Virus record (IMG/VR): IMGVR_UViG_2563366960_000002
Length of the DNA: 64,000 bases
From: a virus
Taxonomy: Duplodnaviria; Heunggongvirae; Uroviricota; Caudoviricetes
Strand: one strand, 5' to 3'
In this document: in pieces, positions 16,628 through 59,200 of the stretch
Layout of the letters: every line of letters starts with the position of its first letter
Position numbering within the stretch: position 1 is the first letter of the stretch
The notes under the pieces: model-generated
What the model was told of the DNA's origin: nothing
What the model saw: only the letters and a program-made list of their open reading frames with translations
Databases searched by the model: none
Translations under genes and position numbers: made by a program

Positions 16628-16703
16628 TGGTGGCCCCTACCGGACTTGAACCGGTGACCGTGCGATTATGAGTCGCCAGCTCTAACCACTGAGCTAAAGG
16701 GCC
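16628..16703 (-). tRNA. tRNA-Ile (anticodon CAU, ileX-like)
   Basis: Cloverleaf read by eye: acceptor GGCCCTT/AGGGGCC, D-arm GCTC-AGTGGTTA-GAGC, anticodon loop CTCATAA, T-loop TTCAAGT, encoded CCA; near-identical to E. coli ileX as recalled. Confidence 0.8.
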
Positions 16704-16730
16704 GGATTACTGCCAATTTTGCTTACGCTT

Positions 16731-17558
16731 TTATTTCACCGGAACAAACGGAACAGCGGCATTACTGGTCATATACTGCGGTAATGTACCGTTCCATTTG
16801 TTGATCGCTTCCAACTCCATAACACCGGGGTTCTGGCGCAGAGCTTCACCACGTAAACGAATGGCATCAGCTTCGGCCTGGGCTTTTGTGCGAATAGCAT
16901 CAGCCTGTCCGGCAGCTTCCGCGCGCAGCATGTTGGCCTCTGCTTCACGTTGTTTGACCTCTTGCTCGCGTTGCAGGGTTTTTTGGTTTGCCGTAACTTT
17001 GGCGTTAATACTGTCAATAACTGTTGGCGGATATTCTGGCTTACCTACATAAGAGAGGCTCATCACCTGAATGCCGATTGGCGTCATTTCTTCCTGAATG
17101 TCTTTAAGGGCTGCATCAAGCAATTCAGATTTGCCACCGTCGATAAATTTGTCGGTGGTCATTTTGCTGGCTAACCGGTTCAGAGCATCTGCAACCTTCT
17201 GGCGTAGATCGGTATCAGTAATATCATCTACACCTTTGCGATAGGTCTGAAATACCGTTGTGACTTTTGCTGGATCAACCTTGTAGGCTACGCCGATGTG
17301 GTAACCAATGGTTGTTCCGTCGCTCATCTGGAAGCTGAACGGCTCATCGTATGTCTTCATTTGCTTAAAGGTCGGGAAGATATAAACTTCAGTATTCAAG
17401 CCTGTCCAGTAGCGACCAACACCAACTACTTCACCGATACCTTTATCATCCCCCAGCTTATTTACTTTGATCCCTACGTTACCTGGCTCTACCCGATCGC
17501 ATCCGGTCAGACATAAAGAACCCAAAATAATCGCTGCACTAATCAACGTTTTTTTCAT
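16731..17558 (-). CDS. plp: SPFH/band-7 domain lipoprotein (P1 Plp-like)
   Basis: 275-aa ORF; signal peptide with lipobox LTGC; band-7 core and C-terminal coiled coil. Confidence 0.65.
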   Translation of the reverse strand: MKKTLISAAIILGSLCLTGCDRVEPGNVGIKVNKLGDDKGIGEVVGVGRYWTGLNTEVYIFPTFKQMKTYDEPFSFQMSDGTTIGYHIGVAYKVDPAKVTTVFQTYRKGVDDITDTDLRQKVADALNRLASKMTTDKFIDGGKSELLDAALKDIQEEMTPIGIQVMSLSYVGKPEYPPTVIDSINAKVTANQKTLQREQEVKQREAEANMLRAEAAGQADAIRTKAQAEADAIRLRGEALRQNPGVMELEAINKWNGTLPQYMTSNAAVPFVPVK

Positions 17559-17775
17559 TAATTAATTTCCTGGTTTTTTCACGAAAAAAGACTACTGCGA
17601 AAGCCGGGTAAATGAGCGCGAGAAGGACTCCCAACAATACAAGTATTGTGCTGTTAGATGAGATCATATTTGGCAAAAGCCAAACATACAGAACCAGTGA
17701 CACAATCAAACAGAGGACGGCATAAATATATAACCGCACCCATAGCGTTCGACATTTGTTCGGATTGTTCTGCAT
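17539..17775 (-). CDS. small membrane protein (P1 Upl-like)
   Basis: 78-aa ORF with two hydrophobic helices, overlaps plp start. Confidence 0.5.
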   Translation of the reverse strand: MQNNPNKCRTLWVRLYIYAVLCLIVSLVLYVWLLPNMISSNSTILVLLGVLLALIYPAFAVVFFREKTRKLINEKNVD

Positions 17776-17931
17776 CCTCTCACTCCATTATTTAACGAAT
17801 AAAAAAGCTGCGGTGCCGGGTACCTCCCGGTGTCCTTTGGCTGGTTATCCACCGTGGACGGGGAAACAAGGAGAAATGAATGGACTGATATAACCATTTC
17901 CCCGCGTGCGCTTAGCCGCATTCACCGCAAT

Positions 17932-18031
17932 GGTAAGAGCACTTGGCTGGCTGGGCGGCGATGACGCCTGTATGCATTTGGTGATCCGGTTCTGCTTCCG
18001 GCATTCGCTTAATTAGCCAAATACTCTTAAC
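17932..18031 (-). repeat. GGTAAGAGCA-initiated structured element directly 3' of tRNA-Ser (imperfect partner TACTCTTAAC)
   Basis: Direct read; shares terminal motif with elements at 18497 and 19038. Confidence 0.3.
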
Positions 18032-18038
18032 GTTGCGC

Positions 18039-18125
18039 TGGCGGAGAGTAATGGAATCGAACCATCATCGCTTGCGCTATGGGACGGTTTTCAAGACCGC
18101 TTGAGCACCATGCTCCCTACTCTCC
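18039..18125 (-). tRNA. tRNA-Ser (anticodon UGA), class II with long variable arm
   Basis: Acceptor GGAGAGT/ACTCTCC, anticodon arm GCGGT-CTTGAAA-ACCGT, T-loop TTCGATT, encoded CCA; D-arm spacing non-canonical, needs covariance-model check. Confidence 0.65.
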
Positions 18126-18259
18126 CGTTATTGTGGCGACCGGTGCTGATCTCCGGCTTGCGGTTATTTCAGACTCTCACGGGCGTTTAATTGCCCCGCC
18201 GAACAGCTCTTTTCCGCAATAGCTGCAATGTCTTTCGCGCATCAGCCTGCGCATTCACC

Positions 18260-18350
18260 ACAACGTTGAGAACACTGGTTGTCACGCGCAACGCAACATT
18301 TATTCGTAGATTGGGATATGACCCCGTTACGCCAGTGTTCTCAACGTTGT
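18260..18350. repeat. perfect 19-bp inverted repeat ACAACGTTGAGAACACTGG / CCAGTGTTCTCAACGTTGT around a 53-nt spacer
   Basis: Direct read, arms 18260..18278 and 18332..18350. Confidence 0.7.
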
Positions 18351-18496
18351 AGTGCCGGTTACGGTTCCGGCCAGGCCTCTTCCTCAACGGGGTGTTCTCC
18401 ATACGGACTACCGTTTATTGGTCGTTCCTGCGGTTTATGTTGTGAAGCCAGATGCTTATCTTCTGGTTGCTTCAAAGAGCTGCACTTCATCACAAC

Positions 18497-18570
18497 GGTA
18501 AGAGCATTTATGGCTCGCATCGCGGGAAAAAGCCCACGGTAGAGAGTCGAACTCTACAAATGCTCTTACC
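18497..18570 (-). repeat. tRNA-sized palindromic element (13-bp terminal stem GGTAAGAGCATTT/AAATGCTCTTACC, internal T-arm-like hairpin) directly 3' of tRNA-Thr
   Basis: Direct read; no full cloverleaf could be drawn. Confidence 0.45.
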
Positions 18571-18578
18571 TGTTGTGT

Positions 18579-18654
18579 TGGTGCCGGTTAACGGGATCGA
18601 ACCGCTGACCATTCGCTTACAAAGCGACTGCTCTACCAACTGAGCTAAACCGGC
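18579..18654 (-). tRNA. tRNA-Thr (anticodon UGU)
   Basis: Acceptor GCCGGTT/AACCGGC, D-arm GCTC-AGTTGGTA-GAGC, anticodon loop TTTGTAA, T-loop TTCGATC, encoded CCA. Confidence 0.8.
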
Positions 18655-18658
18655 AATT

Positions 18659-18745
18659 TGGTGGGGAGTGATGGAGTCGAACCACCCGAGTCGCAATGAC
18701 AGTAGATTTACAGTCTACCCCGCTACCCCTACGGACTAACTCCCC
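18659..18745 (-). tRNA. tRNA-Tyr (anticodon GUA), class II
   Basis: Anticodon arm GTAGA-CTGTAAA-TCTAC and variable arm nearly identical to E. coli tRNA-Tyr as recalled; acceptor GGGGAGT/ACTCCCC; D-arm spacing irregular. Confidence 0.65.
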
Positions 18746-18750
18746 TAAAT

Positions 18751-18827
18751 TGGCGATGGTGGGTGGATTCGAACCACCGACCGACAGCTTAGAAGGCTGC
18801 TGCTCTATCCTACTGAGCTACACCATC
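18751..18827 (-). tRNA. tRNA-Arg (anticodon UCU)
   Basis: Acceptor GATGGTG/CACCATC, D-arm GCTC-AGTAGGATA-GAGC, anticodon arm GCAGC-CTTCTAA-GCTGT, T-arm GGTGG-TTCGAAT-CCACC, encoded CCA. Confidence 0.8.
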
Positions 18828-39581: not shown

Positions 39582-40619
39582 TTAACCTATTGCTACTGGT
39601 TTTAACAAACCAGCATCAAGTAGCTTGCGAGTTAACCACTGCTGGCCTTTACCCGTTAATTGGGGCGTCAGCCGTATCTGGTAGCCATTTTCATCATCCA
39701 GCACCACTTCTTTCACCGTGAAATACCCGGCGTTAATGTACTGCTGGCGCGGTACGTTTTTGCGCGCACCAAAAGCCATGAGAATGCCGTTCTGGCGCAA
39801 CCATGAGAAAAGGGCGTTTTGCTTAAGTCCAACGACCTTTGCAAAGTTCCCGATCAGGATTCCATTAGCCGCTGATACCCGGTCGGCAAAATCGACTTTA
39901 GGGGTTGCGGCCACCAGCTGTTGTTCCAACTGCATTTTCTGTTCTGCCAACTCGGCAGCCAGGCGTAGAGCTTCTGGTAATGTTTGGGGGATCGATGGGG
40001 CAGGGGAGTTTGCCTGCTGCAATTCTTCCAGTTTGTCGATCAGCGAACGGCGGACCGCTTTTGACTCGCGCGCGGCGACTCGCAGGGCTTGTTTGAAAGT
40101 CATGGTTATGACAAGCATTGATGTTTTGTTCATTTTTTCCACTACACTTTTTGTGTAGTGCTCACCATCAAGCTCATCGAGTATTTTTTCGATGAATTTG
40201 TTGTTCCGAACCTCTGGTTCCCCACATAACTTACGCGCTTCATTGACCATCTTTAACAGTGTCAGGCTGTCGATTGTGTCTCCGGTGTTGGAGATAACAT
40301 TCACTGCTGGTGATGGCGTAGCTGAAGCAACAGGTGCTGGTTTTTCAACATTCAAATTATTACCGGTCATTCTGCGCGCCTCCTTTCTCATTTCTGCTGC
40401 CACTGTTGCGTAACGTAGACGTCCTTGTTCAATCAAATAATCCCTGATCTCGGCTATCAGTAGCCTGTTGATCACAGCCTTATCTGTTCGGGTATAAAAA
40501 CGTCTGGTTATCATGAAATAGTTGGCAATTGCGCCGGGGATCTCCCGTGTCGGCATACAGGTTGTATGCAAAGCGATCGCTTCGGCTATTTCATTACGGG
40601 TGACGAGAGGTGTTTTCAT
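39582..40619 (-). CDS. ant: antirepressor Ant (KilAC C-terminal domain)
   Basis: 345-aa ORF; C-terminus paralogous to KilA C-terminus; start overlaps icd stop. Confidence 0.7.
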   Translation of the reverse strand: MKTPLVTRNEIAEAIALHTTCMPTREIPGAIANYFMITRRFYTRTDKAVINRLLIAEIRDYLIEQGRLRYATVAAEMRKEARRMTGNNLNVEKPAPVASATPSPAVNVISNTGDTIDSLTLLKMVNEARKLCGEPEVRNNKFIEKILDELDGEHYTKSVVEKMNKTSMLVITMTFKQALRVAARESKAVRRSLIDKLEELQQANSPAPSIPQTLPEALRLAAELAEQKMQLEQQLVAATPKVDFADRVSAANGILIGNFAKVVGLKQNALFSWLRQNGILMAFGARKNVPRQQYINAGYFTVKEVVLDDENGYQIRLTPQLTGKGQQWLTRKLLDAGLLKPVAIG

Positions 40620-40879: not shown

Positions 40880-41090
40880 GGTTCCAATCTCAATGGCGGT
40901 AGCACTGACTGGGTTGGAACTACCGGCGCAAAAGGGAACCGGCCTGCCTTTCGGCAGCCCAGCCAGCACTACCATTGATCTCGGAGCTATGTGCTACGTA
41001 TGGCTGTGCGATGGCATGACACAAAAAAGACGCTTTTGGCGTCTGTGTCGCCTTTTGCATTATCCGGGGTTCCAATCCCGGCATCCGTTT
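40880..41090 (-). ncRNA. c4-type antisense RNA region with complementary target elements (boundaries approximate)
   Basis: Leader between operator/promoter and icd contains GGTAGTTCCAACC complementary to GGATTGGAACC upstream and GATTGGAACCTC downstream; the latter sits in a hairpin next to the icd RBS. Confidence 0.4.
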
Positions 41091-41170
41091 TACTAAGATG
41101 CCTGTTTAGGATAAACCGAAAATGCATTAGCACGCAAGAAAGTTAATGTAGCATATGAAGCTAAAAAAAC

Positions 41171-45607: not shown

Positions 45608-48600
45608 ATGGAAAGAAAAAACGCCAACATTGACGATGTTATAAGGACAGTTGAAACCGCCAGCGCAAAAGAGCTGGAAGAGCTTGCAGGTATCCGGGAA
45701 GCTGTTGAAGATTTGAAAGGGGGACGCGTTGCTACTGTTGATCCTGTCTCTCGCAGCGTGTCGGCATTAAATCGCACAATCGACAATTCCCGGCCTGACT
45801 TTGTGGCCAAAGCGCCATCAGTAGACCCTATTGTTGACGCAATGAAACGGCTTAATTTAGGGGACGTTTCTCGTGTAGTTCAGGAAGATGTTGCTCAACA
45901 GGAACTGCGGGCCAAATCAACTACACCAAAGGGTAAAAAACGACACAGGAAGGCTATACCAGAGGATGTAAAGGCACAACGGACCGAAGCAGCCGAACAC
46001 GCTCGCGAAATGTTCGGTCAAAAAGGCGGTGCGCAAAAAAGCCAAAACAAACGCGATGCGCGTGGTCGTTTTATTGGCAAGTCAGGGAGTAAGGCCGCAG
46101 CGGAAGAAGCCCGTGCTGAACGAGCAGAAAAGGCCAGGCGCAAAGAGGATGATGAGCGTCTAAATGCTGAATCAGGTTTATTAAAAAAACTGTCAAAAGT
46201 AGCTGAAGGCATAGGTAACCCTTCAGAGACTCGTGCCGTCGATGCGTTAGGTTATGCCGTTGCTGGTCCATTGTGGGCAGCAGGGAAGGAGCTTGGCGGG
46301 ATATCAAAAGAAGTTGGCGGATCGCTTAATGGTGCCAGAAAGTCTATTGCCGATGTGATTCGTGGCAATGACGATAACAGCCGTAGAAAAGGTTTTTTTA
46401 GGCGTAAATCGCAAAGTAGTGCCGATGTCGTTCAGGTTAACACCCAAAAACGGACGGTTCAGGAACTTCAGGATCAGACCAGCGAAATTAAAGAGGGCAA
46501 TGACAAGATTCTCCGCGCCCTTGATCAGATAGCCAAAAACACCGGGAAAAAGAAGGGCGGCTTGCTGTCCAAACTATTTAGCCTGTTAGGGAAGGGGGCC
46601 GGTGGCGTCGCGTCGTTGTTAATGGGGCGTGGCATGCTGAAAAAAGCTGGAGCACTCGCTTTTGGCGCTCTGGGGGCAAAGAAACTTGTAGGAATGCTAC
46701 GCGGTGGTGGCAAGAAGACTCTCACCCATGAAGGCGGAGATTTGGCTGCCCGGGCAGCAGGTAAACTTGGATTAAAGGCAGTTGGTAAAGGGGCGTTACG
46801 CGCAATTCCCCTAGTCGGCACAGTGGCTGGAGGTATTTATGATGCGGTAACCGGTTGGAATGATACAGAAGCGCAACGTCGAGCGTTTGGGCTTAAATCA
46901 GGACAAGATCCATCATTCCAGCAAAAAGCCGCTTATACGTTAGCCAATGTTCTTGATATGGGGGGACTGGTATCTGGTATTAGCAGCGCCATTGGTGAGG
47001 TTCTCAAATCACTTGGATTTGAGGATATCGGCAATATGTTGCAATCATTTTCGACGGAAAGTATTGCCCAGGCCATTGATAGTGGGATTACCAACTTAGA
47101 AACATATATTTCTAACCTTGGCGACACCATTTCTACCAAGTTCGAAGATTACACAGCAAAGATTGGTGATGCTGTTTCAGAATGGTTTAGCGATACATCC
47201 AATAAGCTGATTGAAAAGCTGGATGCCATAAAAAACTTCTTTACTGTCGATAACCTGAAACAGGTTTTCAGTGATGTAATTGATAGTGCAATTGATTTCA
47301 TTAAGAACCCAGGGAAACACATTAAAGAGGCGGCTGGTAATATTTGGGATGGGGTTAAAAATTTACCCGGTAAAGCATTAGATGCAGCGGTTGATGCCGT
47401 TAAAAATACCCCTGCGGAAATGATTGTATCAAAAATACCCAATCCGATCGGCGAGGCTAATGCGAAAGAAATCACTCCAGAGTTAAAAGCTCCGGTTAAT
47501 AGCCACCAGGAGACATCTGATTCTAAAACTGAATCCGATGCCAAACAGACTAATATTGTTACCCGCGTGATAAATGCGGCACTGGACACGGCGAAAGATA
47601 GCAATAAAACAGTTAAAGAAACTGCTAATCAGATTATCAATGCAAATGCCGTAGAAACGGGAAATAGCGCGTTGCAGAAAATTGATAGAGCTATTGGTCA
47701 AAATAGCTCGTCATCATCGTCGCTTAATACCACTGGTACCAGGAATGACATTCAGAAAGCTGCGGATACCTACAACAATGGCAACTTGGATGTAAAAGTC
47801 GAAGGTCTTGGCGCTGAAGGTAAGGCAAATCTCGATAAGTTGGCTCCGTATTTTGCTGACCTAGAGAATAAATATGGCCTTCCTGAAGGTACTCTTTACT
47901 CGATTGCTGCAACTGAATCAGGAGGGAATCCTAACGCAAAGTCTCCGCTGACAAGATCACCAGATGGAAAGTTAAGTGGTGGCGCACTCGGGATGTTCCA
48001 GTTCACGAGTATTGCTCGTAAAGAGACAGGGATATCGGAACAGGATGCATTTGATCCCGTGAAATCGGCAGAAGCTGCGGCTCTTCTCATGAGCAAGTAT
48101 CTGAAGCAAGCCAATGGAGACTTAAACGAGGCCATCACTGCATATAACGCTGGGTTTGGCACTATCAATAAGTGGAAAAAAGGCATAGGTGACTTATCGA
48201 AAGAAAACCGTGAGTACGCGATCAAGGTCAATACTCATCGTGCTCGCTATTTAGGTGGTGAAATCTATACACCTGGAGCAGAAGCACAGGGTGGGGCGCA
48301 ATATGGAGTGAGGGGACCACTGCCTGATAACGCTGTTATCGATCAGTCTACTGGTCTGGCGTTTACCCCTGGTGATAGTCCGTTTGAGAAAGGCGGTCTG
48401 GTAGACAAAATCGGTAATGCTGTTGGCGTTAACGATCTGGTCAACAAATTCATGCATGGTCGGGGGATGCGTCGAGAAGTTGTTCAGGGAACGCTCGAAG
48501 AACGTGCACGAGGAAAGGGGACCGCAACGGCTGCTGGCAATGTGTATGTTGATACACCTATGCCAGTTGAAGAGGCACGTCCGGTGGCCAACAACTCAAG

Positions 48601-49030
48601 TTACTTTGACCAGCTCGGCGCACAAATGGGGATTGATGGACTGTATGACAAACTCATTAATGCCCGGGGAATGCGCTCAAATAATTCTCCTCAACCAGCC
48701 TCCACGTCCCAGGTGACGACTGCCGCCAACGATTTGCAGCAACCAACCGGTCGTATGCAGATAGACGGGCAGGTTATTAGTGACCTTGGCGGTTCCGGTG
48801 CCAAGCCGACAATGCAGTTGGCTGATAATACCGTTTCACTTGATGGTGAAACGAAGCGGCTGTTTGCGCAGATGACCTCATTGCTCGCCAGGATTGAAGA
48901 GCACACCAAAGACTCGGCGAAAGGCCAGGGAACTGTCGTAAAGGTCAGCACGCCTCAGCCGGGCGTTATGCGCACGGTACCACTGTCAATTGATGATCCG
49001 TTGATGAATGACTACGCGAGAGTTGATTGA
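45608..49030 (+). CDS. sit: tape-measure-like structural injection transglycosylase (P1 Sit-like)
   Basis: 1140-aa ORF; Gly-rich central region; C-terminal SLT motif ATESGGNPNAKS...GALGMFQF...AYNAG. Confidence 0.8.
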   Translation: MERKNANIDDVIRTVETASAKELEELAGIREAVEDLKGGRVATVDPVSRSVSALNRTIDNSRPDFVAKAPSVDPIVDAMKRLNLGDVSRVVQEDVAQQELRAKSTTPKGKKRHRKAIPEDVKAQRTEAAEHAREMFGQKGGAQKSQNKRDARGRFIGKSGSKAAAEEARAERAEKARRKEDDERLNAESGLLKKLSKVAEGIGNPSETRAVDALGYAVAGPLWAAGKELGGISKEVGGSLNGARKSIADVIRGNDDNSRRKGFFRRKSQSSADVVQVNTQKRTVQELQDQTSEIKEGNDKILRALDQIAKNTGKKKGGLLSKLFSLLGKGAGGVASLLMGRGMLKKAGALAFGALGAKKLVGMLRGGGKKTLTHEGGDLAARAAGKLGLKAVGKGALRAIPLVGTVAGGIYDAVTGWNDTEAQRRAFGLKSGQDPSFQQKAAYTLANVLDMGGLVSGISSAIGEVLKSLGFEDIGNMLQSFSTESIAQAIDSGITNLETYISNLGDTISTKFEDYTAKIGDAVSEWFSDTSNKLIEKLDAIKNFFTVDNLKQVFSDVIDSAIDFIKNPGKHIKEAAGNIWDGVKNLPGKALDAAVDAVKNTPAEMIVSKIPNPIGEANAKEITPELKAPVNSHQETSDSKTESDAKQTNIVTRVINAALDTAKDSNKTVKETANQIINANAVETGNSALQKIDRAIGQNSSSSSSLNTTGTRNDIQKAADTYNNGNLDVKVEGLGAEGKANLDKLAPYFADLENKYGLPEGTLYSIAATESGGNPNAKSPLTRSPDGKLSGGALGMFQFTSIARKETGISEQDAFDPVKSAEAAALLMSKYLKQANGDLNEAITAYNAGFGTINKWKKGIGDLSKENREYAIKVNTHRARYLGGEIYTPGAEAQGGAQYGVRGPLPDNAVIDQSTGLAFTPGDSPFEKGGLVDKIGNAVGVNDLVNKFMHGRGMRREVVQGTLEERARGKGTATAAGNVYVDTPMPVEEARPVANNSSYFDQLGAQMGIDGLYDKLINARGMRSNNSPQPASTSQVTTAANDLQQPTGRMQIDGQVISDLGGSGAKPTMQLADNTVSLDGETKRLFAQMTSLLARIEEHTKDSAKGQGTVVKVSTPQPGVMRTVPLSIDDPLMNDYARVD

Positions 49031-51652: not shown

Positions 51653-51730
51653 CAATCACCCCGTCCGTAGGGCGGGGTGACAAGTTACTTCTCTTACAAT
51701 GAGGCTTCACAACATTGATTAGGGAAAATC

Positions 51731-52165
51731 ATGTCTGACGTCTCAACAAACCTCTATAAGAGTCAGTTGTTGGACTATTACTATCAGCGGCGCGCTGAAT
51801 CGTCCATTAACAAAGGCTCTCGATTTTTAATCAGCAAGGCCGTTTTCGGTACCAGTTCGCTGGTTACCAAGAAAGGAGATGGCACTTATGAGATTGGAGA
51901 ACTGCCAAAGGCTTTCGATCTGGCAGAACTGACCAGTCAATTTTGCACCATCAACCTCGTGCCAACCTACTCAGGTGGGATAATTACTGTCCGAATGGAC
52001 CTTGATCAAAGCCAGTTGCAGGAAGGGAAAAACTACCCATTCAACACTCTGGTTGTTCTGGATAACGAGAACAAGCCAATCGCCATTATTTGTGTCCAGG
52101 AAGACTCGCTGTATGTGGGCAAAACATATACCGCAGTTATGGCCATAAACACGACTACAGCATAA
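51731..52165 (+). CDS. tail-fibre-associated protein (P1 R-like)
   Basis: 144-aa ORF immediately upstream of the fibre gene. Confidence 0.45.
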   Translation: MSDVSTNLYKSQLLDYYYQRRAESSINKGSRFLISKAVFGTSSLVTKKGDGTYEIGELPKAFDLAELTSQFCTINLVPTYSGGIITVRMDLDQSQLQEGKNYPFNTLVVLDNENKPIAIICVQEDSLYVGKTYTAVMAINTTTA

Positions 52166-52176
52166 GGATATGCTTG

Positions 52177-55101
52177 ATGAATGACGTTACAGTTGTCACA
52201 TCGGTTACTTACCCATCACCCGAGTCGTTGGCTCTGGTGGCTGATGTGCAATACCACGAACCATATCTGTCAGCCGCGCTAAACCGAAAATTCAGGGGGA
52301 TTGTTGACCCGGGATTTTATGCCGGTTTCTTACCTAAGCCTGGCGGTGGGATGAACCTGTTAATCACCTCAGTGGATGGTGATAAAACCGCAGGCGCGGC
52401 GTCGGTGGATATTGGTGAATTCTACCAGGTAACTATTCAGCAACGTAAGGATATTTCTCTTGCACTTAGTGCAGGCAAGAAATATGCAATTGTGCTGAAG
52501 GGAAGATACCTCCTTGGAGAAGATACCTATCAGGTGAATACCGCGTCACATATTCATGCGGCTGAATTTGTTGCCAGAACCTATACCGATTCATATCAGT
52601 TAGGAGATGGGGAGCTGCTTGTTTGTACGGTGAATATCCCTGCTGGTGTATCTGCCATTACCCAGGAGATGATTGATACATCCGAGCGTATCAACCGCAC
52701 GATCGGCATTGATATTTCAGACTCTGTAACCAGTAGCAGAAGTGATGTTGCTGCAAGTTCGCTGGCAGTTAAAAAAGCTTACGATCTGGCGAAAAGTAAG
52801 TATACGGCGCAGGATGCAAGCACAACGCAAAAGGGATTAGTTCAGCTCAGTAGCGAAACTAACAGCGACAGCGAAACAATGGCGGCTACCCCTAAAGCCG
52901 TTAAGTCTGTAAAAGATCTTGCTGATACCAAAGCGCCAATAGAAAGCCCGAGTCTGACAGGAACGCCAACCGCGCCGACGGCAGCGCAAGGTACAAATAG
53001 CACGCAGATCGCAAATACAGCCTTTGTTAAGGCAGCTATAACGGCACTTATCAACGGTGCACCTGGCACACTGGATACACTTAAAGAAATAGCTGCTGCG
53101 ATCAATAACGACCCGAATTTCAGCACAACTATCAACAATGCTCTGGCCCTTAAAGCGCCTTTAGCAAGTCCTGCATTAACGGGAATACCTACTGCGCCTA
53201 CCGCTGCACAGGGTACGAATAACACGCAGATTGCTACGACCGCTTATGTAAGAGCTGCCATATCCGCACTGGTTGGTTCATCACCAGAAGCTCTTGATAC
53301 CCTGAATGAGCTTGCCGCAGCACTTGGCAATGACCCGAACTTTGCGACAACAATGACAAATGCGCTGGCAGGCAAACAGCCTCTGGATGCAACTTTAACC
53401 GCTCTCGCGGCCCTTGCGACTGGTGCAAACAAACTGCCTTATTTTACTGGTAAGGATACGGTAGCTCAGACTGATTTAACGTCAGTCGGTCGCGATATTC
53501 TGGCTAAAACAAGCACACTGGCCGTTATCCAATACCTTGGTTTAAGAGAACTCGGTACCAGCGGTGAAAAGATCCCCCTGTTGAGCACGGCTAACACATG
53601 GAGTGCGCGCCAGACTTTCAACGGCGGGATCACCGGAGCGCTGACAGGGAACGCCGATACCGCAACGAAATTGAAAACAGCCAGAAACATTAATGGCGTC
53701 AGGTTCGATGGTTCTGGTGACATTAATATCAATACTATGGTATCGCGTGGTCGCGTAACGGCTCTGGGGGCGAATGCACAGGGGACATCCGGGATTCAGC
53801 TGTATGAGGCATACAACAATGGCTACCCTTCCCCCTATGGCAATGTGCTTCACCTTAAAGGTGCCACCGCTGCTGGCGAAGGTGAGTTATTCATTGGCTG
53901 GAGTGGCACGAGTGGTGACCATGCGCCCGTACATATCCGTTCGCGGCGGGATACTGATTCTGCTAACTGGTCTGAATGGGCGCAGGTCTATACGTCAAAA
54001 GATTCCGTTCCCGGCGTTAATGCCAAAGGGAATCAGGACACCTCTGGTAATGCGGCTACAGCGACTAAATTGCAGACAGCATGTACTATTAACGGTGTCT
54101 CGTTTGATGGTTCTAAAAACATTGAGTTAACGGCGGAAGATTTAAATCTTGAGCAAACCGTAGAATTAGCCGTAGGAGCATTACAGAAAAACCAGAACGG
54201 CGCGGATATTCCAGGAAAAGATACCTTCACCAAAAATATTGGGGCCTGCCGCGCATATAGCGCATGGCTGGATATTGGTGGCGATAGTCAGGTCTGGACA
54301 ACCGCGCAATTTATTTCGTGGCTGGAGAGTCAGGGAGCATTTAACCATCCTTACTGGATGTGCAAAGGCTCATGGGCTTATGCAAATAATAAGGTCATTA
54401 CAGATACAGGTTGCGGAAATATTTGTCTTGCAGGTGCTGTGGTGGAAGTTATTGGCACTCGCGGCGCAATGACCATACGCGTTACCACGCCGAGCACGTC
54501 CAGCGGTGGAGGAATTACTAACGCTCAATTCACTTATATTAATCATGGTGATGCTTACGCTCCTGGCTGGCGACGAGACTACAACACGAAAAATCAACAA
54601 CCTGCATTTGCTTTAGGGCAAACAGGAAGCACTGTCGGAAATGATAAAGCTGTTGGCTGGAACTGGAATAGCGGGGTCTATAACGCAATCATTGGTGGCG
54701 CATCGACATTAATCCTCCACTTCAATATGAATACGGGGAGCTGCCCTGCTGTACAGTTCCGCGTGAATTACAGGAACGGTGGTATTTTTTATCGTTCAGC
54801 GCGTGATGGTTACGGATTCGAAGCTGACTGGTCAGAATTTTACACCACAACACGCAAGCCATCAGCAGGAGATGTTGGTGCATATACGCAGGCAGAATGT
54901 AACTCAAGGTTTATTACAGGTATTCGCCTTGGCGGTCTGTCATCTGTTCAGACATGGAATGGTCCCGGCTGGTCTGACAGGTCAGGTTATGTCGTTACGG
55001 GTTCAGTTAACGGAAACCGTGATGAATTAATTGATACAACTCAGGCAAGGCCAATTCAGTATTGCATTAATGGAACGTGGTATAACGCGGGGAGTATTTA
55101 A
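52177..55101 (+). CDS. S: tail fibre protein S (constant Sc part to about 53550, variable Sv part thereafter)
   Basis: Start set at ATG 52177 (MNDVTVV) after AAGGA RBS; track ORF begins upstream at 52090; crosses cix site at 53525..53550; C-terminal half shares a 599-bp repeat with the inverted Sv' cassette. Confidence 0.8.
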   Translation: MNDVTVVTSVTYPSPESLALVADVQYHEPYLSAALNRKFRGIVDPGFYAGFLPKPGGGMNLLITSVDGDKTAGAASVDIGEFYQVTIQQRKDISLALSAGKKYAIVLKGRYLLGEDTYQVNTASHIHAAEFVARTYTDSYQLGDGELLVCTVNIPAGVSAITQEMIDTSERINRTIGIDISDSVTSSRSDVAASSLAVKKAYDLAKSKYTAQDASTTQKGLVQLSSETNSDSETMAATPKAVKSVKDLADTKAPIESPSLTGTPTAPTAAQGTNSTQIANTAFVKAAITALINGAPGTLDTLKEIAAAINNDPNFSTTINNALALKAPLASPALTGIPTAPTAAQGTNNTQIATTAYVRAAISALVGSSPEALDTLNELAAALGNDPNFATTMTNALAGKQPLDATLTALAALATGANKLPYFTGKDTVAQTDLTSVGRDILAKTSTLAVIQYLGLRELGTSGEKIPLLSTANTWSARQTFNGGITGALTGNADTATKLKTARNINGVRFDGSGDININTMVSRGRVTALGANAQGTSGIQLYEAYNNGYPSPYGNVLHLKGATAAGEGELFIGWSGTSGDHAPVHIRSRRDTDSANWSEWAQVYTSKDSVPGVNAKGNQDTSGNAATATKLQTACTINGVSFDGSKNIELTAEDLNLEQTVELAVGALQKNQNGADIPGKDTFTKNIGACRAYSAWLDIGGDSQVWTTAQFISWLESQGAFNHPYWMCKGSWAYANNKVITDTGCGNICLAGAVVEVIGTRGAMTIRVTTPSTSSGGGITNAQFTYINHGDAYAPGWRRDYNTKNQQPAFALGQTGSTVGNDKAVGWNWNSGVYNAIIGGASTLILHFNMNTGSCPAVQFRVNYRNGGIFYRSARDGYGFEADWSEFYTTTRKPSAGDVGAYTQAECNSRFITGIRLGGLSSVQTWNGPGWSDRSGYVVTGSVNGNRDELIDTTQARPIQYCINGTWYNAGSI
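53525..53550. promoter_or_regulatory. cix recombination site (TTATCCAATACCTTGGTTTAAGAGAA)
   Basis: Resembles Gin/Cin crossover sites as recalled; lies at the boundary of the inverted repeat. Confidence 0.7.
53551..54149. repeat. left inverted repeat of the C-segment (599 bp)
   Basis: Exact reverse-complement match to 57228..57826; identical ORFs on opposite strands in the track. Confidence 0.85.
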
Positions 55102-55103
55102 TT

Positions 55104-55637
55104 ATGATGCACTTAAAAAATATTACTGCTGGCAACCCTAAAACAAAAGAGCAATACCAGCTAACGAAACAATTTAACATCAAATGGCTTTATACAGAGG
55201 ATGGGAAAAACTGGTATGAGGAACAAAAGAACTTTCAGCCTGATACGTTGAAAATGGTCTATGACCACAACAACGTTATTATTTGTATTGAAAAGGATGT
55301 TTCAGCAATTAATCCAGAAGGCGCAAGCGTCGTTGAGGTTCCTGATATTACAGCAAATCGCCGGGCTGATATTTCGGGTAAATGGATGTTCAAAGATGGC
55401 GTAGTGATAAAGCGAACTTATACCGAGGAGGAACAGAGGCAGCAGGCAGAGAATGAAAAGCAAAGCCTGTTGCAACTTGTCAGGGATAAAACCCAGCTAT
55501 GGGACTCACAGCTACGGCTGGGCATCATTTCCGACGAGAATAAGCAGAAATTAACCGAGTGGATGCTCTTTGCGCAGAAAGTCGAATCTACAGACACCTC
55601 CAGCCTGCCAGTAACGTTTCCCGAACAACCAGAATGA
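55104..55637 (+). CDS. U: tail fibre assembly protein U
   Basis: 177-aa ORF directly after S; paralog of the inverted U' gene. Confidence 0.75.
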   Translation: MMHLKNITAGNPKTKEQYQLTKQFNIKWLYTEDGKNWYEEQKNFQPDTLKMVYDHNNVIICIEKDVSAINPEGASVVEVPDITANRRADISGKWMFKDGVVIKRTYTEEEQRQQAENEKQSLLQLVRDKTQLWDSQLRLGIISDENKQKLTEWMLFAQKVESTDTSSLPVTFPEQPE

Positions 55638-55640
55638 GAG

Positions 55641-55668
55641 AAGGCCCGCTATCGGGCCTTAATTTTTA
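55641..55668. terminator. bidirectional terminator (AAGGCCCG-CTAT-CGGGCCTT then T-rich)
   Basis: Direct read between convergent U and U'. Confidence 0.65.
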
Positions 55669-56193
55669 TTCAGGCTTTTGTGGCCATTCAGGATTTGCCG
55701 TATCCACACGGCTGACCAGAACGCTGTAGCGTTCCCATGACTCCAGTCGTGCGCGTTCCTCATCCGTCGCCATGTTCAGCCTGACAGCGCGTTCCAGTGG
55801 CTGGATAACTGATTCAGCTTCGGAAAGTAATGCGGCCTTTTGTGATTTGGCCTGTTGTTGCTGTTCGTCTGCCGTATAAATCCGCTTAACTACAGCCCCG
55901 TCCTTAAACATCCACTTACCGGAATCATCAGCACGACGATTAGCTGTAATATCAGGAACCTCAACGACGCTATAACCTTCAGGGTTAAGCGTGGAGGCAT
56001 CTTTGGTGATGGCGACAATAATATTATTTGCATCGTAAACAATCTTTATTGTGTCTGGCTGAAAGTTTTTCACTTCCTCATACCAGTTTTTTCCGTCCTC
56101 AGAGTAAAGCCAGATAACTCCGTGTTTCTTTGTTAACTCATACTGTTCCAGTGTTTTAGCGTTACCCGCTTTTATGTTCTTTAAGTGCATCAT
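55666..56193 (-). CDS. alternative tail fibre assembly protein U'
   Basis: 175-aa ORF; N-terminus [14 protein letters not shown] paralogous to U. Confidence 0.7.
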
Positions 56194-56194
56194 A

Positions 56195-57796
56195 TTAAAC
56201 GCTCGCTACATTATACCAGGTGCCATTTATATACTTTTGAACGGGTCTGTAATAAACGCCCGCTATATTATCGGCAGAGTTGGACCCTGTATCCTGAACA
56301 TTAATACCAGACAATACATGACCTGACGGGCACTGGAAATTCCATGTTTGCCAGTTGTTCACTCCATAATATTGCTGTGAACCAAGTCGAACATCTTTCA
56401 CATATCTGGAATCAAAATTGCCATAGTTTCCGGGAATAACTTGCGCACCGCAAAGCCAGTTTCCGTTATTATCCATGTACGCCTGACCATCGGTGCCATT
56501 GGCTGTCCTTGAATTATTAATCATGTAAAAACCAAACTGGTAGTTACCAAGTCCACCGACAAAAAATTTGCGTTCTGCATGGTCTTGTCTTAACAAAGCC
56601 TGCGCAGAACTTGTTGATACTGCGTTTCTACCAAAAATGACATTCTGGTTTCGCATATCAATCCATGAGGTTGAGCCACTATTAATAGCAAACCTGTTTG
56701 CATACACCCAGGCGTTAGTTGTTATATCTCCTGTAACATCCAGACCATGCCCCATAGTTATGCGGCCAGTTCTGAGATTAAGCGTAAAGGGACGTAGTGG
56801 CCCTATATCACCATTTTCCCCCTCATTCTCTCGTGTAGGGATGATATGCAGGCATTCTTCAGAACGGCGAAAAATGGCACCAAAAGATGAATTAAATATC
56901 CTCAGTGCATTGACTGTCGATATTTTTACTTCACTGCTGAAAAGGGCTTTAACAAGAACAGACAAAGCATCCCATTTAAGATTCATCAGGTCTTTTGTTG
57001 TGGTGCTCTGGCGGCTTCTCCATTTGAAATATTCATTTCCGTTGTCGCCTGTTTCAAACCACATGTATGAATCAGTATCGCTGTCGGCATCATTTTTAAA
57101 TCCAATCTTTGCCCAGTCAGTATTTCGAATCCAGGCAAGGATTGAGTCATTTTCAAAAGTAAGCCCGCCGGACAAGATATCGCCTGAACGCTGAACGGCA
57201 TTATTTGCTTTATTAATGAATTCCTGTAGATTTAAATCTTCCGCCGTTAACTCAATGTTTTTAGAACCATCAAACGAGACACCGTTAATAGTACATGCTG
57301 TCTGCAATTTAGTCGCTGTAGCCGCATTACCAGAGGTGTCCTGATTCCCTTTGGCATTAACGCCGGGAACGGAATCTTTTGACGTATAGACCTGCGCCCA
57401 TTCAGACCAGTTAGCAGAATCAGTATCCCGCCGCGAACGGATATGTACGGGCGCATGGTCACCACTCGTGCCACTCCAGCCAATGAATAACTCACCTTCG
57501 CCAGCAGCGGTGGCACCTTTAAGGTGAAGCACATTGCCATAGGGGGAAGGGTAGCCATTGTTGTATGCCTCATACAGCTGAATCCCGGATGTCCCCTGTG
57601 CATTCGCCCCCAGAGCCGTTACGCGACCACGCGATACCATAGTATTGATATTAATGTCACCAGAACCATCGAACCTGACGCCATTAATGTTTCTGGCTGT
57701 TTTCAATTTCGTTGCGGTATCGGCGTTCCCTGTCAGCGCTCCGGTGATCCCGCCGTTGAAAGTCTGGCGCGCACTCCATGTGTTAGCCGTGCTCAA
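56195..57796 (-). CDS. alternative tail fibre variable cassette Sv' (promoterless; fuses to Sc after inversion)
   Basis: 533-aa ORF; first about 200 residues identical to the matching S segment, then divergent. Confidence 0.7.
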
Positions 57797-57826
57797 CAGG
57801 GGGATCTTTTCACCGCTGGTACCGAG
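57228..57826. repeat. right inverted repeat of the C-segment (599 bp)
   Basis: Reverse complement of 53551..54149. Confidence 0.85.
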
Positions 57827-57852
57827 TTCTCTTAAACCAAGGTTTAGGATTG
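57827..57852. promoter_or_regulatory. cix recombination site, inverted copy
   Basis: Reverse complement CAATCCTAAACCTTGGTTTAAGAGAA matches the left site over its core and inner arm. Confidence 0.7.
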
Positions 57853-58404
57853 AAATGATGACGCAGGAAACTTTTTATAAAGCGTGGAAACAGCAACATC
57901 ATAGATGATTGCAACCTGCTTACGGGGGATGCCATTCTCCAGCAATCGACGCATTTGCTGCCATGTTTCTTCTTGGTATTTAGGCCGACGGCCTCCTATT
58001 CGACCTTCTGCGCGAGCTGCATCAAGTCCAGCGCGTGTACGTTCAACGATAAGCTCGCGTTCCATTTCAGCCAGCGCCCCCATTACGTGAAAGAAAAAAC
58101 GCCCCATTGGTGTACTGGTGTCGATAGAGTCAGTGAGACTCCGGAAATTAATTCCTCTGTCACGCAGCTCTTCCACCAGCACAACCAAGTGACGCATGCT
58201 GCGCCCAAGACGATCTAACTTCCATACGACCAGGGTGTCACCTCTGGAAAGCATACGCAAAACCTTTTTTAGCCCAGGGCGTTCAGTCTTTTTGCCGCTC
58301 GCCTTATCCTCAAAAATTAGCTCACATCCTGCGCTTTCAAGGGCATTTCGTTGCAAAGCAGTGTTTTGTTCATTTGTTGATACGCGTACATAGCCGATCA
58401 GCAT
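57844..58404 (-). CDS. cin: serine recombinase / DNA invertase Cin
   Basis: 186-aa ORF; N-terminal resolvase-family catalytic motif GYVRVSTNEQ, C-terminal HTH; adjacent to cix. Confidence 0.85.
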   Translation of the reverse strand: MLIGYVRVSTNEQNTALQRNALESAGCELIFEDKASGKKTERPGLKKVLRMLSRGDTLVVWKLDRLGRSMRHLVVLVEELRDRGINFRSLTDSIDTSTPMGRFFFHVMGALAEMERELIVERTRAGLDAARAEGRIGGRRPKYQEETWQQMRRLLENGIPRKQVAIIYDVAVSTLYKKFPASSFQS

Positions 58405-58525
58405 GATTTTTACTCTAATGCGTTGTTCTTATGAGTCTGCGAATTTTAAAGAACAAAGCGTTATGCACAGAAATAACAATCTGAATAGGTTCCTGCTTGA
58501 TTTTTGTTAGATCCGGGAGGAGCTT

Positions 58526-58810
58526 ATGCAGATTTTGATTTTTTTAATGTCCATTATTAGTGGAACCTATTTATTTCTTACTGGAGTTAGGCGTGGAGCT
58601 TATAAGCCATGTTTTTTACATTGGCTTGAAGCATGGCTGCTTGCCATAAAAGGTGGTTTTGTTGGTTTTTGTCTTGCAGAAGTTCAGTGGGGAAACTCAT
58701 TTTTGAATGTGGTTGCTTTTTTGATATGTAGTTGGAATAGCCATTTTGTATTAAGAATAACCAAAATATGGGTTTTTCACTTGATTTACGAATGTATTGG
58801 CAAATTATGA
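58526..58810 (+). CDS. small membrane protein, AT-rich
   Basis: 94-aa ORF with three hydrophobic helices; GGAGG RBS. Confidence 0.45.
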   Translation: MQILIFLMSIISGTYLFLTGVRRGAYKPCFLHWLEAWLLAIKGGFVGFCLAEVQWGNSFLNVVAFLICSWNSHFVLRITKIWVFHLIYECIGKL

Positions 58811-58870
58811 ACAACCAGATGAGAAGTTACTTTGCATACCATTACCTCCTGACAACGTAGGAGGGAACTT

Positions 58871-59200
58871 GTGCTTGACACACAGGAATTAGCTCCAGTT
58901 GCTATTGCGCTCCTGCTTTCAGTAATTGGTGGGATAGGCACGTTCCTGATGGATGTCCGAGACGGTCGCCAGTCTGGCAATTTGTTGGGATTGGTTACGG
59001 AGATCTTTGTTGCAGTGACAGCTGGCGCGGTGGCGTACCTATTGGGGCAACACGAGGGCTGGGAGTTATCAATTACGTACTTAATGGTAACGATAGCCAG
59101 CAATAACGGTCATGAGGTGATTTCAGGGATGAAACGAGTGAATATCGATAGCATTCTGAATGTTCTTACAAGTTTGGTGAAAAAGGGAGGCGGGAAATGA
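58871..59200 (+). CDS. holin-like membrane protein (P1 LydA-like by position)
   Basis: 109-aa ORF with two TM helices and charged C-terminus. Confidence 0.45.
   Translation: MLDTQELAPVAIALLLSVIGGIGTFLMDVRDGRQSGNLLGLVTEIFVAVTAGAVAYLLGQHEGWELSITYLMVTIASNNGHEVISGMKRVNIDSILNVLTSLVKKGGGK

Follow-up and report, generated by a model that had tools for sequence, protein, structure and literature searches.

The 64,000-nucleotide stretch of phage DNA analyzed here (the window; IMG/VR record IMGVR_UViG_2563366960_000002) carries what is almost certainly the Cin/cix invertible tail-fibre segment (C-segment) by which a P1/P7-like phage-plasmid of the genus Punavirus switches host range, and it is an intact and ordinary example of a P1/P7-type C-segment, a system that is already known and belongs to the fibre switches driven by Cin/Gin/Hin/Pin (Din) invertases. 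The invertible segment itself (53538–57839, assigned to neither strand) measures 4302 bp between its two crossover points, compared to 4256 bp annotated in P1. An earlier, sequence-only reading had proposed an intact invertible host-range switch, and this description is borne out, as Cin, both cix sites, the enhancer sequence, the two fibre ends and the two chaperones are all intact. Descriptions of the P1-type fibre switch date back to the early 1980s, and sequenced phage-plasmids of enterobacteria carry such a system by the hundreds. As a clean and fully intact copy of this known system, the locus has little significance beyond annotation. It is the C-segment together with Cin that confers a flexible host range (PMC6906374).

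Between positions 52000 and 59000, 93% of the window aligns collinearly to P7 and RCS47 with about 95% identity, and the gene order is the same as that of the annotated P7 and P1 loci. The 24-kb neighbourhood is common to 798 plasmid records, and the best PLSDB match to positions 40000–64000 reaches 96.6% over 92%. Plasmid p3 of E. coli EC02 is 100% identical over a 2.2-kb junction query, but it is unlike the window outside the junction, having another tRNA set and another sit length. No identical record was thus found, neither in PLSDB nor in EC02 p3 with its differences elsewhere, and the element is mosaic.

Both ends of the segment are marked by a recombination site. The Sc-proximal cix (P1 cixR) lies on the plus strand at 53525–53550, which reads TTATCCAATACCTTGGTTTAAGAGAA, and the cin-proximal cix (P1 cixL) lies on the minus strand at 57827–57852, where it extends over the final codons and stop codon of cin and reads, as reverse complement, CAATCCTAAACCTTGGTTTAAGAGAA. 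Each is identical to its P1 counterpart at 26 of 26 positions, and the central TT (53537–53538 in the Sc-proximal site) is found on the inward-reading strand of both, so that the dinucleotides match. A pattern search of the window allowing up to three mismatches recovered no sites other than these two, which lie on opposite strands, where chance alone would give 0.01, in agreement with the two inverted 26-bp cix sites previously noticed. A multi-segment shufflon of the p15B Min type was also considered and rejected, since the cix-like search gave two sites only.

A perfect inverted repeat of 616 bp begins inside the cix sites (left arm 53534–54149, plus strand; right arm 57228–57843, minus strand), and is reported by a repeat search as 630 nt at 99%. 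The length of 599 bp given before for exact inverted repeats is correct for the portion outside the 26-bp cix (53551–54149). Further inverted repeats located inside the segment, 72–73% complementary, were rejected as recombination sites, as they turned out to be the two chaperone genes, which are homologous, lie face to face and encode products with 58% amino acid identity. Homologous recombination would find ample substrate in a perfect inverted repeat of 616 bp, and the homogenisation of its arms, which show 100% identity to each other and 96.1% to the P1 arm, itself bears the mark of homologous exchange or gene conversion; inversion might occur mainly by RecA-dependent recombination between the repeats rather than by Cin at cix. 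We regard this route as highly improbable, since Cin, cix and the enhancer are highly conserved with P1 and P7, and such conservation would not persist if they were unused. In P1 and Mu it is the site-specific inversion route that dominates, which also counts against a RecA route, and Cin-mediated inversion at cix is therefore the reading that we retain.

The late promoter LPs (51682–51700, plus strand) lies outside the invertible segment and consists of a −22 box, AAGTTACTT, and a −10 box, TACAAT, both identical to those of the annotated P1 and P7 LPs, with a single substitution in the spacer. It is followed on the same strand by gene R (51731–52165), an ORF of 144 aa for tail-fibre structure or assembly at the same position as gpR in P7 and P1, and by Sc, the constant N-terminal part of tail-fibre gene S, which starts with an ATG at 52177, contains Pfam Phage_fiber_2 repeats and extends to the crossover (52177–53537). 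In an identical record, PGAP annotates a 974-aa “phage tail protein” here. Beyond the crossover, the expressed variable fibre end (53538–55101, plus strand) is identified as orthologous to both P1 Sv′ and Mu S′ by sequence identity (91% in a 520-aa alignment with P1 Sv′, 97% in one of 317 aa with Mu S′) and by its match to the Mu S′ structure 8ju3 in PDB (E 2.5e-214), while past the shared repeat it aligns weakly to P1 Sv (35% over about 70 aa). The adjoining tail-fibre assembly chaperone is of the U′ type (55104–55637, plus strand; 177 aa; Pfam Caudo_TAP), sharing 96% of its residues with the U′ of P1 and 98% with that of Mu. A candidate terminator (55641–55660, plus strand), a GC-rich hairpin followed by a T-run, is situated between the two convergent chaperone genes.

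On the minus strand, the silent cassette comprises a U-type chaperone of 175 aa (55666–56193; Pfam Caudo_TAP; 91% identity to P1 U and Mu U) and a variable fibre end of the P1 Sv/Mu S type (56195–57839) that lacks its own start codon and promoter. This fibre end holds a 533-aa ORF (56195–57796) whose frame is open to cix, and PGAP labels it “incomplete; missing N-terminus” in a locally identical record. Its identity is 75% with P1 S but 64% with Mu S; among PDB entries it matches 5yvq with an E value of 2.6e-138. Its tip is the sole mildly unusual feature of the locus, as the last 121 aa show 96.7% identity to SfMu and P2-like fibres, and about 50–63% to P1 Sv (62.8% over 121 aa). The promoterless cassette on the opposite strand that had been proposed is indeed present and without promoter, although its Sv′/U′ label is wrong by homology. 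A promoter scan over 7.5 kb gave two weak sites, fewer than in shuffled sequence and neither at a relevant place, and found no sigma-70-like site at the 5′ end of the silent cassette. Inversion of the segment in silico keeps the frame and produces an uninterrupted 1001-aa S with the chaperone ORF directly after it. The two fibre ends had been expected to diverge completely after the shared repeat; divergence is evident, with about 20–30% identity per 50-aa block mid-way, but it is not complete, as the identity is 40–50% in the last 85 aa or so, and blastp aligns the two variable parts with 36% identity over 75 aa (E 1e-6).

The state of the switch has to be named with care. The “S-Sv orientation” assigned at first is a positional label only and is the wrong way round by homology, the expressed fibre end and chaperone being of the P1 Sv′/U′ type. 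C(+) in P1 denotes Sc fused to the P1 Sv orthologue and followed by U, which is not the arrangement found here, and the C-segment matches the P1 reference solely on the strand opposite to that of its flanks. Since the expressed cassette is the Sv′/U′ orthologue and the P1 reference has the segment the other way round, the state displayed by the window is C(−) in P1 nomenclature. The same arrangement is found in the deposited P7 genome, and the P7 annotators name it C(+). Orientation names copied by position (P7 record) clash with those assigned by homology (P1, Mu), and given this conflict, host-range prediction from an assembly should use homology. It is conceivable, though we consider it rather unlikely, that the printed orientation is an assembly choice, the culture being mixed and the assembler having resolved the 616-bp repeat one way; the repeat arms exceed short-read length, and either orientation can be met among publicly available assemblies of related plasmids. 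Such a choice is compatible with an invertible switch and weakens just the word “captured,” with which the orientation had been described, and in a mixed-population assembly across a 616-bp repeat the printed orientation is not strong evidence of the biological state.

The intact cin gene (57844–58404, minus strand) is adjacent to the segment as previously recognized, overlapping the distal cix site with its last codons. It encodes a serine DNA invertase of 186 aa with 98.9% identity to P1 Cin, 99.5% to P7 Cin and 77% to Mu Gin, and differs from P1 Cin by two substitutions, A40T and K157N. Its two Pfam domains match practically the full length of their profiles (Resolvase, E 3.8e-51, positions 2–144 of 145; HTH_7, E 2.4e-18, positions 1–44 of 45), and the active-site Ser9 is present in the motif YVRVST. 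A putative recombinational enhancer (sis) is placed in the 5′ part of cin (58315–58386, minus strand) by its likeness to the annotated P1 and P7 enhancers; it is identical to the P7 enhancer and agrees with that of P1 at 69 of 72 positions, with no indels and the spacing kept, all three changes being located in the central stretch. The region upstream of cin is P7-type, with a P7-type C1 operator 5 bp from the cin start codon, and is unlike the P1 region with its predicted P1cin and P2cin promoters. A simple scan detected no sigma-70-like promoter upstream of cin, a scan that is uninformative for this gene, and expression of Cin in this element is assumed.

One could ask whether the switch is frozen or very slow, with Cin barely or not expressed in the host and the silent cassette an unexpressed relic. 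The stretch upstream of cin yielded no consensus promoter, the C1 operator so near the start codon might repress the region in lysogens, the given sequence holds one orientation only, and truncated cin or a damaged C-segment has been reported in other P1-like plasmids (PMC6906374). We nevertheless consider a frozen switch unlikely, since the silent cassette, with its 533-aa ORF and 175-aa chaperone, is free of stop codons and frameshifts, the arms are 100% alike yet 96% identical to those of P1, which argues for continuing exchange between them, and close relatives show both orientations. The plasmid of E. coli mip270_05 matches the inverted window with 96.97% identity over 9,989 bp in a single alignment, and among complete E. 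coli genomes the as-given junction is found in 44 and the inverted junction in 16 (each with at least 80% query coverage), from which it follows that both states occur in nature. A working switch remains our preferred reading; by homology with P1 and Mu, this particular copy would invert, with dependence on Fis, and the two fibre ends would differ in receptor specificity.

In the layout of the locus, a single late promoter, LPs, upstream of R serves R and Sc and, across the Sc-proximal cix, the cassette that happens to face it. By homology with P1 and Mu, Cin would pair the two inverted 26-bp cix sites with the assistance of host Fis at the enhancer in cin, and strand exchange at the central TT/AA dinucleotide would flip the 4.3-kb segment, swapping the last 520 aa or so of the fibre along with the co-transcribed chaperone. 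In the orientation given, Sc is joined to the P1 Sv′/Mu S′ orthologue with a U′-type chaperone; inversion would yield a 1001-aa fibre of the P1 Sv/Mu S type with an SfMu/P2-like tip, accompanied by a U-type chaperone.

The receptor specificities of both fibre ends are extrapolated from P1, Mu and SfMu. The S′ fibre of P1 depends on O-antigen, and with it P1 transduces S. flexneri 2a and 5a as well as E. coli O3 (bioRxiv 10.1101/2022.07.24.501295; PMC10999674). SfMu and Mu S′ fibres are over 95% identical and yet have different host ranges (PMC4406740), and for this reason 91–97% identity to P1 Sv′ or Mu S′ does not oblige a fibre to have the hosts of either. We tentatively suggest, as a possibility that we hold to be somewhat less than even, that the element combines a pair of cassettes absent from P1, namely an O-antigen-dependent S′-type fibre and an Sv-type fibre with a tip of about 120 aa from the SfMu/P2-like lineage. 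In that case the classical P1 C(+) specificity for the K-12 LPS core would be lacking in both states, and the two receptors between which the element alternates would be those of wild enterobacteria with O-antigen, which would constitute a new combination in a known mosaic system and not a new mechanism. As the fibre tips are mosaic (SfMu/P2-like), the two host ranges of the element are not readable from P1, which concerns transduction and phage-delivery work.

Compared with known systems, the locus shares with the P1 C-segment (NC_005856, 31660–36490) the architecture LPs-R-Sc, cix, Sv, U, U′, Sv′, cix and cin, repeats of about 0.6 kb and a segment of 4.3 kb. Unlike the window, the P1 reference holds its segment in the opposite orientation, and its repeat arms carry four mismatches whereas those of the window are perfect. 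P7 (AF503408) and phage RCS47 are collinear with the window in the same orientation, and they agree with it fully in the enhancer and between cin and lydC. However, the P7 inverted repeat is about 140 bp with mismatches, against 616 bp and perfect in the window. P7 also has a shortened Sv′, which counts 447 aa beyond the crossover, and its expressed chaperone is broken into two parts, Ua and Ub, while both chaperones are intact in the window. The 3-kb unique part of the segment also shows 91–93% DNA identity to the G-segments of SfMu, P88 and Mu, and both fibre types have solved structures (8ju3 and 5yvq). In contrast to the window, Mu has a short constant part, inverted repeats that consist of the recombination sites only, and its invertase on the other side relative to the expressed cassette; in the window, about 200 aa of the variable part lie inside the 0.6-kb repeat.

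Two cix sites, between which Cin would invert the C-segment, lie on opposite strands of the window, one on the side of the constant fibre part Sc (53525-53550, plus strand, TTATCCAATACCTTGGTTTAAGAGAA) and one on the cin side (57827-57852, reverse complement, CAATCCTAAACCTTGGTTTAAGAGAA). A degenerate cix pattern tolerating up to three mismatches found these two and no others in the 64 kb, where 0.01 were expected by chance, and each is identical at 26 of 26 positions to the P1 annotation (NC_005856), matching cixR on the Sc side and cixL on the cin side. With crossover at the central TT (between 53537 and 53538, and between 57839 and 57840), the invertible segment measures 4302 bp. A perfect inverted repeat of 616 bp (53534-54149 and 57228-57843), returned as 630 nt at 99% by a separate repeat search, begins within the sites. 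The inverted cix pair of the sequence-only reading is thus present, and its 599-bp repeat is exactly the portion past the 26-bp sites. Inside each arm there is also a 78-nt direct repeat (53647-53724 and 54046-54123, 71% identity, 399 nt apart; mirror copies at 57254-57331 and 57653-57730), coding for the fibre-shaft motif GNA(D/A)TATKL(K/Q)TA..INGV.FDGS..I.

Downstream of a late promoter LPs (51682-51700), whose boxes are the same as in P1 and P7, R (51731-52165) is followed by S (52177-55101, 974 aa), consisting of Sc up to 53537 and then the variable part, and by the expressed chaperone (55104-55637, 177 aa, Caudo_TAP), "expressed" meaning the cassette joined to Sc as given. The deposited P7 genome (AF503408) has the U'-type chaperone in two pieces, Ua (93 aa) and Ub (83 aa) (4608-5141 of the P7 locus), whereas the window version is intact. 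A GC hairpin with T-run (55641-55660) comes next, and then, on the minus strand, the silent chaperone (55666-56193, 175 aa, Caudo_TAP) and the silent fibre ORF (56195-57796, 533 aa), whose frame is open up to the cix site. ORF and promoter scans found no start codon or promoter belonging to this ORF, in agreement with the promoterless opposite-strand cassette described earlier, and in a record identical over a 2.2-kb junction query PGAP labels the silent-fibre stretch "incomplete; missing N-terminus." The adjacent Cin invertase was likewise correctly recognized: on the minus strand, cin (57844-58404, 186 aa) overlaps the distal cix site, and its Resolvase and HTH_7 domains are both full-length.

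The sequence-only reading was right in calling the locus an invertible switch; as to the state it is in, homology gives a different answer. The whole-query match to P7 is collinear, and the P1 reference aligns with the C-segment on the opposite strand only. In the expressed cassette, the variable end shares 91% identity with P1 Sv' (520 aa) and 97% with Mu S' (317 aa), its PDB match being 8ju3 (Mu S/S' fusion, E 2.5e-214), and for the chaperone the values are 96% against P1 U' and 98% against Mu U'. In the silent cassette, the fibre end shares 75% identity with P1 S (Sv), 64% with Mu S and 87% with P7 Sv' (PDB match 5yvq, Mu S, E 2.6e-138), and the chaperone 91% with both P1 U and Mu U. Protein comparison settles the orientation question at the level of homology: because the expressed end and chaperone are of Sv'/U' type and the silent pair of Sv/U type, the window is assigned to the C(-)/S' state under P1 and Mu nomenclature. 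The label "S-Sv" is positional and misleading on function; the deposited P7 genome is arranged in the same way, yet is labelled C(+) by position.

When 53538-57839 is inverted in silico, both cix sites are re-formed and an unbroken 1001-aa S results, with the U-type chaperone behind it, its start codon 1 nt past the S stop codon (TAATATG). The plasmid of E. coli mip270_05 carries just such a 1001-aa S, followed by chaperone genes of 528 bp and 534 bp. With the inverted window it forms a single alignment of 9,989 bp at 96.97% identity, whereas its alignment with the window as given is broken at the repeat. Judged from this record, the opposite state occurs in nature. In a set of 5,426 complete E. 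coli genomes, counted irrespective of relatedness and at a coverage of at least 80% of the query (52838-55049), 44 have the as-given junction and 16 the inverted one; among genomes with this cassette pair, natural hosts that bear O-antigen or a bias in assembly may account for the roughly threefold excess of the S'-type junction. The printed orientation itself may be an assembler's choice from a mixed population. From such population-level arguments we infer that the window's own copy flips, and RecA could mediate inversion across the 616-bp repeat as a minor route. Alternatively the switch may be frozen; against this, the silent ORFs are intact and the repeat arms perfect. The two arms match each other at 100% but the P1 arm at only 96.1%, and P1's own arms mismatch at 4 positions, which indicates that homogenisation between arms is ongoing. 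The P7 inverted repeat spans no more than about 140 bp and contains mismatches. Taken together, the comparison suggests that within each element the arms evolve in concert.

The silent fibre is a mosaic. Through the repeat and slightly past it, it resembles P1 Sv (92-100% in each 50-aa block), while over the last ~120 aa identity is 96.7% with the SfMu silent cassette and with a P2-like prophage fibre, against 62.8% with P1 Sv and 67.2% with Mu S. P1 cannot provide a basis for assigning the silent fibre's receptor. Small fibre differences matter for host range, as the S'-type fibre of SfMu, for which O-antigen is the receptor, is >95% identical to that of Mu and differs in host range (PMC4406740).

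The element is a P1/P7-like phage-plasmid and the locus its C-segment: 52000-59000 is collinear with P7 and RCS47 (~95% identity over 93% of the length), and there are matches to the 24-kb neighbourhood in 798 plasmid records, most of them from Escherichia and others from Salmonella, Klebsiella and Shigella. No PLSDB record is identical across 40000-64000, and the backbone is, by comparison, a mosaic. Plasmid p3 of E. coli EC02 has a 100% identical tail-fibre junction and differs in the remainder; its sit is 3375 nt long vs 3423 nt in the window (45608-49030). A cluster of five tRNAs (16628-18827, minus strand) was predicted by ARAGORN, namely CAT anticodon (Met or Ile2), Ser-TGA, Thr-TGT, Tyr-GTA and Arg-TCT, four of which were confirmed by Rfam, with Ser-TGA (18039-18125) not reported. 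The otherwise related EC02 p3 has another set (Ile, Ser, Thr, Asn), and therefore the tRNA complement is variable among P1-like elements. Rfam also reports C4 antisense RNA (40892-40979, 76.7 bits) and isrK (41023-41101, 58.5 bits) on the minus strand. As would be expected of a P1/P7 element, this stretch is the ImmI immunity region, which lies upstream of icd/ant.

The switching machinery is close to that of both phages. The window Cin differs from P1 Cin solely by A40T and K157N, and the predicted 72-bp enhancer inside cin (58315-58386) is identical to that of P7 and shares 69 of 72 positions with that of P1, the three changes all being central and without indels. A simple scan for a sigma-70-like promoter of cin found none. 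A P7-type C1 repressor operator (58409-58425; Op(lydC) in the P7 annotation) precedes the cin start codon by 5 bp, and the cin-lydC intergenic region is the same throughout as in P7, annotated C1 operator included, whereas it differs from the P1 region with predicted cin promoters. The system is already known, the C-segment having been described since the early 1980s according to the account in PMC6906374 (Iida et al., 1982), and it is common in sequenced enterobacterial plasmids.
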